Positions 15,622 through 60,081 of a stretch of DNA of 64,000 nt are shown in pieces. This DNA is from Octopus vulgaris (lineage: Eukaryota). The stretch is taken from NCBI GenBank assembly GCA_951406725.2, contig OX597821.1, positions 50,592,001-50,656,000 of the forward strand, read 5' to 3'. The first letter of the stretch is position 1. Every line of letters starts with the position of its first letter. The position numbers were made by a program, and so were the translations under genes. The notes under the pieces are model-generated. The model had not been told where the DNA came from and made no database searches. It saw nothing but the letters and a program-made list of their open reading frames with translations.

Positions 15622-15672
15622 AGCTTCTACAGGACTAGAACTGTTTCATTCAAAAGAAATCATCAGGAAGCT
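15622..15672 (-). ncRNA. Type I hammerhead ribozyme with canonical core, in a Penelope-pLTR-like repeat at ~15538-15857
   Basis: Minus strand: agcttc CTGATGA t-ttc-tttt-gaa-t GAAA cag-ttctagtc-ctg TA gaagct; GUA cleavage triplet; first stem II pair is U-U. Confidence 0.7.
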
Positions 15673-29229: not shown

Positions 29230-29705
29230 CAGTTATCGCCAAGCTAATATAGCAGTCCATAAATATAAGACTAAAGCTGCCGTTGATTAGCTCCAAGAGG
29301 CCATCGCCTCTAGCTAATATGTCACACGAACCTGTATCCTTCGAACAGGGGAGGTCAGCCGCTTCCCCTTGCTGGTCAGATATCTGCAGACATGTTTCAG
29401 GATATTTGTCCTTGCAGAGTAACCAGACCCACCAGGCGTCGCTGCCGACCGTCTGATCGAAGGATTATTTACAATTTCAATGGAATACATCCATTGGTTT
29501 TCAAAAATTGAAATATTAAAATTTCTAAGTCTCTCTAAAGGAGACTACAGCAGCGGTATGACACACAGGTTCGTGTGTCATATAGTTAGCTAGAGGTGAT
29601 GGCCTTTTGGAGCTAATCAACGGCAGCTTTAGTCTTATATTTACGGACTGCCATATTAGCTTGCGATAATTGTTAATTTCCAGTACCGCTGCCGTAGTCT
29701 CCTTT
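29228..29705 (-). mobile_element. Retrozyme-like element (same family as 59579-60081) with inverted partial copy; HHR core deleted
   Basis: Reverse of 29228-29558 aligns by eye with ~59725-60080; 29565-29674 is an inverted repeat of 29228-29335. Confidence 0.7.
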
Positions 29706-29821
29706 ATATATATTTTAATATATATATATATATAACATACACTACTTTATTTTGAGATTGCTAGTGTTAACAATACTCGCAAATAAAATACAGACTGGAG
29801 TTGTAGTGCTCTAAGTGAGTT

Positions 29822-30756
29822 ATATTCCACTTATTAATTTCAATAGATGCAATGCAAGCGGAAACTAGAGGAACATCATTAAAAAACAATACTCGAAAAT
29901 GAAATACATACATACATTCTTCCAGATTCACAAAACGGATATATAAATTCCAAATATATAAATATATAAATATTTATAAATAGATAAATATCGATGTGAT
30001 ACATAAAACAGTGAATTTACATTGGTGTAATTAACAATTTGGGAAGATAAAACATTAATAGGACGTACTAAAATCCCACGAAAATAATACAAAAATTAAA
30101 AAATTTAAAGTTCCATCTATGGACCTTTTCAGAGACGTGCCAAGTAATATGATATATTTCATATTTTGAAAACTGACACTCCCTCAACAGGATGTTTTCA
30201 CACACAATATAGAGAAAACAAATACAGAAATACTATTATGCAATTACATACCAGCCACCTGTGAGCTGGTATGTTATTGTGAGTTTTAAAAATATGAAAT
30301 ATATTATATTACTTGGCACGCCTCTGAAACGGCCCATAGATGAAACTTTAAAGTTTCTAATAGTTTCTAGGCCGATGAAGGACAATGATCCTGAAACACG
30401 GTGTCCCTAGATGCAGTTCCGGCGGTTGGGGGTGTTTGTCTCCCCTTCGTATACAACCATTCAATAGTTATATTATTTTCGTGGAATTTTAGTACATCCT
30501 TTTAATGTTTTATAATCCCAAATTGTTAATTACACTAATATATTATGACTTTTAAATGTAAATTTACTGTGTTTTATGTATCACATCGATATTTATCTAT
30601 TTATATATATTTTTATATTTATATATTTGGAATTTATATATCCGTTTTGTAAATATAGAAGAATGTATGTTATGTATTTGATTTTCGAATGTTTTTTAAT
30701 GATGTTCCTCTAGTTTCCGCTTGCATTGCCACCATTGAAATTAATAAGTGGTATAT
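29822..30756. mobile_element. Foldback/MITE element with ~355-bp inverted arms
   Basis: ccacttattaatttcaat...gaaaactgacac (29827-30178) is the reverse complement of ~30277-30751 apart from an insert. Confidence 0.8.
30366..30411 (+). ncRNA. Type I hammerhead ribozyme (core U4C) at the 5' end of a 97-nt TSD-flanked insert
   Basis: tctagg CCGATGA agga-caatga-tcct GAAA cac-g-gtg TC cctaga. Confidence 0.75.
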
Positions 30757-30842
30757 ATATTAATGCAGACACACCCATATATACATACATACATATATGA
30801 TATATACATATGTATATATACGTACACATATATATACATATA

Positions 30843-46004: not shown

Positions 46005-46039
46005 GTTTCCGACGAAGAGCTCCGCTCGAAACGTTAAAC
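46005..46039 (+). ncRNA. Minimal type I hammerhead-like motif (core U4C) in repeat ~45960-46133
   Basis: gttt CCGACGA a gagc-tcc-gctc GAAA cg TT aaac. Confidence 0.6.
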
Positions 46040-51749: not shown

Positions 51750-51751
<2 letters not shown>

Positions 51752-53125
51752 GAAACGATTCCTGGACGATTGTTTTATACTCTGGAATGAAAACACAGAT
51801 AAACTCCTAAAATTCAAAAACCTATTGAACAGCATCAACCCAAATATACAGTTCACAATGGAATACAACCAAAAGGAGCTTCCATTCTTAGATATACTAA
51901 TTAAAAAATTAACCTTAAAATAGAAACAGACATTTTTTACAAAGCCACAGACGCTAAACAATACCTACTTTTTGATTCATGCCACCCAAGACACACTAAA
52001 ACAAACATCCCTTTCAACCTTGCAAGAAGGATATGCACAATAGTGTCAGAACAAAATACCAGGAACTTTAGACTACAAGAACTCAAAAACACCCTAATTG
52101 ACAGACACTACCCAGCTCAACTCATAGAGGATGGGATCAGACGTGCAACAGAAATCAAGATAGAAACTTTGAGAAAAGTCCAACACAACAACACACCTTC
52201 CCCGAAAATACTGCCTTACATTTCCACAGACAACCCCAGAAACAAAGAAGCCTTCACCATCATCACCCAGAATTTACCAATACTTCATAAGGACCCCAAA
52301 TTAAAGGAAATTCTAAACATACATAAAATCATTAAAAGCTACAAACAACCTAAATCACTTAAAAAGATTCTCACAAAGGCAAAATTGTTTTCTGAAATTA
52401 CGGATGCAAAAGTAAAAAAATGTGGTAGACCAAACTGCGCAACATGCCCAAACCTTCTAGAAGGATCAGAATTCCTCTTCAAAGAGGGACAAAAATTCAA
52501 GATCAAATCTAATTTTACTTGTGCTTCTGAAAACATAATTTATGTCATAAGATGCTCGGGCTGCCACCAAAACTACGTGGGGTCCACGGGGCTATCACTC
52601 AGACGTAGATGATGACACTGCATCGACAACAGATTGCATTCCCAGAATACAGAATGATACCCTTTAGTGAGCATATTGAGAAATGCGCAAAGCATCTACT
52701 ACCACAATTTTTAATCTTTCCATTTTATCAATGTGCTATTGGAACACCAACACAAATTAGACTAAACAAGGAAACATTCTTCATTGAAAAATATAAGCCC
52801 AAACTTAACCACTCTAACATTCTTATACAGAGAAACTCACCCCATTAAATAAAAGGGACAAGAAATATAACGCGATTATCTCCCTTACACCGGAAGAAAT
52901 CACTTATTACCTCCCCTTACCTGGAACACTTCTTTACACTTCATAACGAAGACATAACACGATGTTTTGAGAAATTTGAAACGTTAACACGAAACCGGTA
53001 ATTTCTTCAAAAACTATGTCACTGTATGAAAAAATTTTATAACATTCTTCTGACATAATGACTCAAATATATTTTTTAACCTTTTAAAACAAGCCTTCTG
53101 TAGTTTTTTCACTTTTTACTATTTT
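51750..53125 (+). mobile_element. Penelope-like element fragment (RT C-terminus + GIY-YIG endonuclease), 5'-truncated and frameshifted
   Basis: From 51750 WKRFLDDCFILW...IQFTME...LPFLD; SCHPRHTK; linker CGRPNCATC; NIIYVIRCSGCHQNYVGST. Confidence 0.9.
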
Positions 53126-59578: not shown

Positions 59579-60081
59579 CTTGTTCGAAGGTTATAATGGA
59601 TACAGATCGTGTATCAATAGCTATCTTGATGGCGGTGGCCTCATGGAGCTGACCAGCGGCAGCGATTATTCTTATATCTATAAGAATGCCATATTAATAT
59701 GGCGATAACAATTAATTTCCAGTAAACGCTGCCGTAATCTCTTTTATAGAGACTTAGTAATTTTAATATTTCTATTATTGAAAACAAGTGGATGTATTCC
59801 ACTGAAACTAGGTAAATAGAAACCTTCGAACAGAGACGTCAGTGGCGACACCTGCGGGTCTGACTGCGCTACATTGACAAGGGGCAATACCCCGAAACGC
59901 GTCTGTAGCTGTCGGACTGGCAGTGTGAAGCGGCTGACCTCCCTTGTTCGAAGGTTATAATGGATACAGAACGTGTATCAATAGCTATCTTGATGGCGGT
60001 GGCCTCATGGAGCTGACAAGCGGCAGCGATTATTCTTATATCTATAAGAATACCATATTAATATGGCGATAACAATTAATT
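59579..60081 (+). mobile_element. Retrozyme-like 1.4-mer of a 364-nt non-coding unit
   Basis: Direct repeat 59579-59717 / 59943-60081; contains the HHR at 59868-59909. Confidence 0.75.
59868..59909 (+). ncRNA. Type I hammerhead ribozyme, U3-A8 core variant
   Basis: gctaca TTGACAA gggg-caata-cccc GAAA c-gc-g TC tgtagc. Confidence 0.8.

Follow-up and report, generated by a model that had tools for sequence, protein, structure and literature searches.

A short hammerhead-bearing insert in the Octopus vulgaris genome as a probable internally deleted copy of a retrozyme-type repeat with Penelope-type insertion marks

Metazoan non-LTR retrozymes are described as low-GC repeats with units of 170–400 nt and larger duplications, and those of a mussel form repeats of 350–390 bp (PMC7229834). 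A preprint by Li et al. argues from co-occurrence and sequence in vertebrates that retrozymes are non-autonomous Penelope derivatives (10.64898/2026.07.22.740005). The retrozyme consensus lengths in that preprint range from 51 to 972 bp, and cleavage was obtained with one of the nine tested dimers; invertebrates lie outside its study of the Penelope link, and the mechanism of mobilisation is left open. Penelope-like elements are marked by 5' truncation, partial tandems, an inverted 5' copy, a one-ended tail and a bias toward microsatellites (PMC8557442). In the lizard Poseidon element, two internal start sites of reverse transcription delimit the tail, the DNA that is cut is AT-rich and the main template is uncut RNA (PMC11167929). 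Among hammerhead ribozymes, dimer-dependent metazoan type I motifs with a palindromic helix III were described by Cervera and de la Pena 2014 (PMC4209133), and the U4C change in a viroid hammerhead variant is reported to lower its in vitro activity (Perreault et al. 2011, PMC3088659).

The window analysed here is a 64,000-nt stretch of Octopus vulgaris DNA (assembly GCA_951406725.2, contig OX597821.1, positions 50,592,001–50,656,000 of the forward strand) that is rich in microsatellites and short repeats. At 29786–30757, the window contains an AT-rich foldback repeat whose arms are separated by a spacer of ~100 nt with a small inner hairpin. The right arm is broken by an insert that lies between two copies of the heptamer AATAGTT (Table 1). 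The earlier note had read this arrangement as a target-site duplication around 97 nt, with the opposite arm of the foldback as a built-in empty site, and both observations hold. The left arm aligns through the insertion site and offers one 7-nt counterpart, which is 5/7 identical to the duplication. By chance, AATAGTT would occur at a given place with a probability of ~3e-4, as calculated from the composition of the flanks. The host foldback belongs to a dispersed family with ~90 candidates in a first look at the genome. Of the 39 other places listed for this foldback, 20 were examined, and the hammerhead core of the insert is absent from all of them; the segment is not native there. The insert was retrotransposed into the site, as the earlier note proposed, and both its duplication and the empty site are real. 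The proposed start of the insert exactly at stem I of the hammerhead is borne out in part: the insert does start with the hammerhead, but its exact 5' boundary is uncertain by a few bases because 5 of the 28 surrounding bases differ between the right and left arms and the 8-mer of 30352–30359 occurs again at 30362–30369.

Table 1. Features of the insert and its host foldback, in window positions
Feature	Position	Strand	Remark
Left arm of the host foldback repeat, without the insert (empty site)	29786–30178	-	
Right arm of the AT-rich host foldback repeat, broken by the insert	30278–30757	+	
Left copy of the 7-bp target-site duplication, AATAGTT	30359–30365	+	Single counterpart in the empty left arm
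Insert between the two AATAGTT copies, 97 nt	30366–30462		
Type I hammerhead motif with U4C core	30366–30411	+	Parent unit positions 1–46; cut predicted after 30405
Hammerhead stem I, 6 bp	30366–30371/30406–30411		
Hammerhead core CCGATGA (U4C)	30372–30378		
Hammerhead stem II, 4 bp	30379–30382/30389–30392		
Hammerhead GAAA	30393–30396		
Hammerhead stem III, near-palindromic	30396–30404		
C17, end of the cleavage triplet	30405		
Parent unit positions 47–88, identical to a young subfamily	30412–30453	+	Predicted partner of the far unit end in a long rod of the parent
GTATA microhomology at the junction of the missing 120 nt	30449–30453	+	88-nt 5' match plus 14-nt 3' match equals 97 + 5
Last 9 nt, first fixed 3' end of the family (E1, tail-less)	30454–30462	+	Putative start site of reverse transcription
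Right copy of the 7-bp target-site duplication, AATAGTT	30463–30469	+	

The first half of the insert contains every part of the type I fold that the earlier note had named (stem I, the CCGAUGA core, stem II and the near-palindromic stem III). General searches do not single out this motif. Rfam yielded no hammerhead at the gathering score across the whole window or at E ≤ 10 across 30200–30600, with three weak unrelated matches, and the predicted folding of the segment is no better than that of shuffled sequence (z of 0.53 for 111 nt and 0.77 for 97 nt). Support for the hammerhead fold comes instead from its relatives, in which changes in stem I and in stem II are compensatory and stem III stays palindromic. 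The 33 distinct variants from the fetched loci include relatives whose stems I and II are changed yet still paired and whose stem III palindromes differ; stem I is broken in several single copies. A relaxed pattern of the hammerhead core has 612 matches in the genome, compared with none for a control pattern.

Structure prediction points to a hammerhead that is inactive as a monomer. The catalytic fold of the monomer has a predicted energy of −6.5 kcal/mol, compared with −11.9 kcal/mol for a fold that pairs the core CCG with a CGG in loop III, and the predicted lowest-energy monomer fold differs from the catalytic one. For the dimer, a double-hammerhead fold is predicted at −26.5 kcal/mol, which lies below two inactive monomers and less than 3 kcal/mol above the dimer minimum of −29.4 kcal/mol. 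Cutting is thus predicted to require two copies of the hammerhead, which agrees with the behavior of dimer-dependent metazoan hammerheads (PMC4209133). As in those systems (PMC4209133, PMC3088659), stem III is short and self-complementary, allows pairing between copies and is kept across diverged relatives. In contrast to the viroid variant (PMC3088659), U4C is the majority state in the octopus family, specifically in its young subfamilies, and it permits the predicted inactive monomer fold with loop III.

The insert derives from a longer repeat, hereafter the parent, with a unit of 364/365 nt that is arranged head to tail in tandems; this period is seen at three loci (L021, L056 and L080). 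The parent unit has a GC content of 43.8%, and 67% of its bases are predicted to be paired, with a folding z of about −8 against 60 shuffles. The combination of low GC content and self-pairing that characterizes retrozymes is a property of the parent unit and not of the 97-nt piece, with its z of 0.77. Likewise, tandem units of ~150–450 nt that each carry a hammerhead are observed in the parent family but not in the window copy alone, which amounts to one partial unit. The type I assignment of the hammerhead, expected for a non-LTR retrozyme, follows from inspection and from the compensatory changes. The element is non-coding, without a match to Penelope proteins, and is flanked by duplications longer than 4 bp (7 bp in the window). 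These sequence features suggest that the parent is an element of the non-LTR retrozyme type, a class that is further defined by self-cleavage and by linear and circular RNA of unit length. Like metazoan non-LTR retrozymes (PMC7229834), the parent combines its 364/365-nt unit with a type I hammerhead that has a 6-bp stem I and a 4-bp stem II, a GC content below 45%, strong predicted self-pairing, dimers and trimers, the same class of duplications and co-existing Penelope-like elements. Unlike them, the octopus family is mostly scattered as partial tandems and inversions instead of forming long arrays, and it carries the U4C core in its young subfamilies; the window copy further differs as a 97-nt sub-unit fragment with one hammerhead.

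A 35-nt stretch of the hammerhead (30367–30401) has 151 exact copies in the genome, which suggests that the parent family is a young member of this known class. At one candidate source locus (G000:C4:127188792-127189556), the hammerhead occurs in three exact copies spaced by 365 nt, as a trimer of the parent unit. The literature that was searched gave no account of an octopus hammerhead or of this retrozyme family; repeat databases and paper supplements, which lay outside the scope of that search, may list the family.

Aligned to one parent copy, the window sequence shares 88 nt with the 5' side and 14 nt with the 3' side of a 217-nt stretch. The insert corresponds to this stretch of the parent repeat with a 120-nt deletion between two GTATA repeats, and over its 97 nt there is no point change from the parent. 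The GGTTG…CAACC hairpin that had been proposed next to the hammerhead is present as strands, but its outer stem is a product of the deletion, which joins two halves; in the predicted parent fold, CAACC has no partner and the GGTTG strand is paired to the far unit end.

The deleted form is a single occurrence. In a genome search with a 111-mer (assembly of 2.8 Gb in 227 contigs; 40 of 942 candidates scored), no match except the window itself extends beyond query position 95. The other matches cover query positions 8–95 or less and then enter the ~120 nt that are absent from the window copy. At 29 other fetched loci, the shared 87–88 nt continue into ~120 more bases, after which the CAACCAT end is reached in all but one, an internally altered copy. 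The 25-nt sequence across the deletion junction has one match in 2.8 Gb, the window. Five matches were found when one mismatch was allowed, compared with three for a control, and only one of them other than the window is family sequence; three candidate copies from this search (L165–L167) were rejected because they hold no family sequence. A search for hammerhead ends followed within 5–100 nt by the 3' end returned three genome matches with three different breakpoints, and a further pattern for the jump returned four, namely the window, two insertions of an older subfamily and one unrelated deletion. Contigs assembled from four public runs, which can attest presence only, contain the parent continuation at both ends and no 97-nt junction among the matches listed; they bridge neither the filled nor the empty allele of the window locus, and none of the public runs listed is recorded as RNA.

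These results bear on the two readings offered by the earlier note, an ultra-short mobile ribozyme element or a truncated pLTR/retrozyme. The truncated retrozyme copy stands, and the unit of its own does not: matches stop by query position 95, the junction 25-mer is unique in the genome, and the search for copies with the same ends and independent duplications led back to the window alone. Random ends, which had been named as the mark of a mere truncation, were not found either, as the 3' end coincides with the fixed end E1 and the 5' end with a hot spot of stops in the family. It is highly improbable that the 97-nt piece is, or founds, a self-propagating minimal ribozyme element, for which several copies with the same ends and separate duplications are expected. 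The clean duplication, the intact hammerhead, the kept E1 end and the 5' end exactly at stem I would suit such an element, but it has one copy in the genome and, among the matches listed, no junction in the contigs of the public runs, where the parent sequence continues. Both of its ends are also explained by start and stop sites common to the family. Moreover, cleavage after 30405 would strip 40 nt from the 5' side, and RNA cleaved by this ribozyme could not give rise to a copy that starts at 30366. From sequence comparison, the insert is best described as a one-off, 5'-shortened and internally deleted copy of a retrozyme repeat of known kind, with an ordinary cause.

The internal deletion may be explained by a jump of the copying enzyme or by a later loss, and both would yield the same sequence. 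Two insertions of the older subfamily (L168 and L169, ~80% identical) exhibit the same or a nearby jump to E1. Because each is inverted, lacks the hammerhead and has its own target duplications, they represent repeat occurrences of the jump and not daughters of the 97-mer. The recurrence of an early jump to E1 in both insertions argues that the jump arose during copying. Insertion of a 217-nt copy that later lost 120 nt through microhomology-mediated repair or replication slippage is unlikely. The 5-nt direct repeat at the breakpoints fits this route as well as a copying jump, but the 97 nt without any point change from the parent leave little time for a second event, the same jump near E1 is found in two independent insertions, and other family copies contain switches that are typical of copying.

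The ends of the window copy follow a pattern that is shared by the family. In total, 45 distinct insertions were defined from 60 loci, all of which had been chosen for holding a hammerhead. The outer end lies at E1 (unit position ~219) or at E2 (~274), 55 nt apart, in all 45 insertions, and E1, where the window copy also ends, is a putative start site of reverse transcription. Inverted structures (5' inversion) are present in 29 of the 45, and 25 of these inverted insertions combine an E1 arm with an E2 arm. Flanks of (TA)n are found in 38 insertions; the other seven comprise six with duplications of 6–14 bp and one doubtful case. The window copy lacks both the (TA)n target and the inversion, unlike most of the family. 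The arms reach up to 857 nt, more than two units, and run through intact hammerheads. In a set of 79 distinct arms with a hammerhead, 73 end short of the next unit. Twelve of the 73, with the window copy among them, end between −2 and +7 nt relative to the base of stem I, compared with ~6% predicted by a geometric decay fitted to the data (p 0.0015, for an interval picked after the data were seen and with stem I mismatches in two of the 12 arms).

The fixed 3' ends, the inversions, the tandems of partial units and the preference for (TA)n match the structure of Penelope insertions, and we infer on this basis that Penelope machinery probably inserted the family. Partial tandems, an inverted 5' copy and a one-ended tail, as expected of a non-autonomous element mobilised by Penelope, all occur in the family. 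Like Penelope-like elements (PMC8557442, PMC11167929), the parent family exhibits these features together with 5' truncation, two fixed internal 3' ends, AT-rich or microsatellite targets and copying through an uncut hammerhead. It differs from them in having no reverse transcriptase (RT) or GIY-YIG frame in the element or its copies and in the length of its tail, which at 55 nt exceeds the described 30–40 nt and counts against the Penelope fit. A partner with a homologous terminal repeat was not found at 28 GIY-YIG loci or at L163.

Candidate sources of such an enzyme exist in the genome, where open RT and GIY-YIG frames of 776–781 aa are present. Of 6136 candidates from a GIY-YIG search, 150 were scored. 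No terminal sequence in common with the parent family was detected in the 28 loci around GIY-YIG matches or in L163, which represent a small part of the candidates. The sole match among the 28 loci, L103, was rejected as a partner since it is a separate related repeat on the other strand. At L143, a pair of hammerheads 4 kb apart encloses the frame of another repeat, without a Penelope-protein match. A search with a Penelope-type protein in L001–L084 and L113–L162 matched only L137, where the Penelope-type element is a neighbor in the same (TA)n tract with no common terminal sequence.

The parent could also be the terminal repeat of an autonomous Penelope-like element that has yet to be located, with the short copies as its truncations. 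All structural marks of the family are those of Penelope-like elements, and hammerheads sit in Penelope-like terminal repeats (PMC4209133). Nevertheless, this origin is very unlikely: long copies proceed around the 364-nt unit and on into a following one without any reading frame, and the only match of the Penelope-protein search in L001–L084 and L113–L162 was the neighbor at L137.

Several other elements were observed during this search. Another Penelope-type element, whose open frame spans 776 aa, starts at a (TA)n tract by an older retrozyme copy in L163 (G000:C1:188817500-188825500). L097:1245-3587 and similar loci represent a Penelope-type family that is young and has many open RT and GIY-YIG frames of 781 aa; several copies have an upstream open frame, and the 3' region consists of repeated short motifs. 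The window itself carries, at 51750–52809, a frameshifted 3' fragment of a Penelope-type RT/GIY-YIG frame that is 43–69% identical to the 781-aa protein. At L019/L020 (G000:C10:26828676-26832641) and L143, retrozyme arms ~4 kb apart have non-Penelope open frames between them, and the L020 frame presumably resembles a LINE endonuclease.

A second retrozyme-like family, ~58–63% identical to the parent unit, occurs in the window at 29230–29706 and 59581–60079 and at L103:91-536. It has a covaried hammerhead and a tail similar to that of the parent. The copy at 29230–29706 has an inverted structure, is bordered by (TA)n runs and has apparently lost its hammerhead core. The window further contains minimal hammerhead-like motifs in two near-identical copies each, at 46009 (+) and 9347 (−) and at 15666 (−) and 60259 (−), and the former pair has a CCGA core too. 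CCGA cores are also found beside the GIY-YIG loci L089, L100 and L104, so the U4C core may be common in the octopus genome.

Taken together, the insert is very probably a single 5'-shortened, internally deleted copy that likely resulted from one event of target-primed reverse transcription by a Penelope-like enzyme. The copy is probably a dead end. In this model, a protein with RT and GIY-YIG domains would bind multimeric or circular RNA of the retrozyme, and the AT-rich DNA of the foldback arm would be cut with a 7-nt stagger. Reverse transcription would begin inside the RNA at the fixed site E1, and after 9–14 nt the enzyme would jump 120 nt at the GTATA repeat. It would then copy through the uncut hammerhead and stop at the base of stem I, the recurrent stop, and repair would leave the 7-bp duplication. 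As the window copy has a single hammerhead and lacks both a tail and a second unit, it would have no evident route to unit-length or circular RNA.

The window copy itself is ordinary, and the value of the locus lies in the insertion footprints of the parent family. The chances are about even that this family is a young invertebrate case of a retrozyme inserted by Penelope machinery, with a U4C core that locks the monomer off through loop III so that only dimers cut, two internal starts of reverse transcription 55 nt apart, each used on a different arm of inverted copies, and a multimeric or circular template that is copied for more than two units through uncut hammerheads. The family would carry the footprints of Penelope insertion directly, and its near-identical young copies would map where copying starts, jumps and stops.
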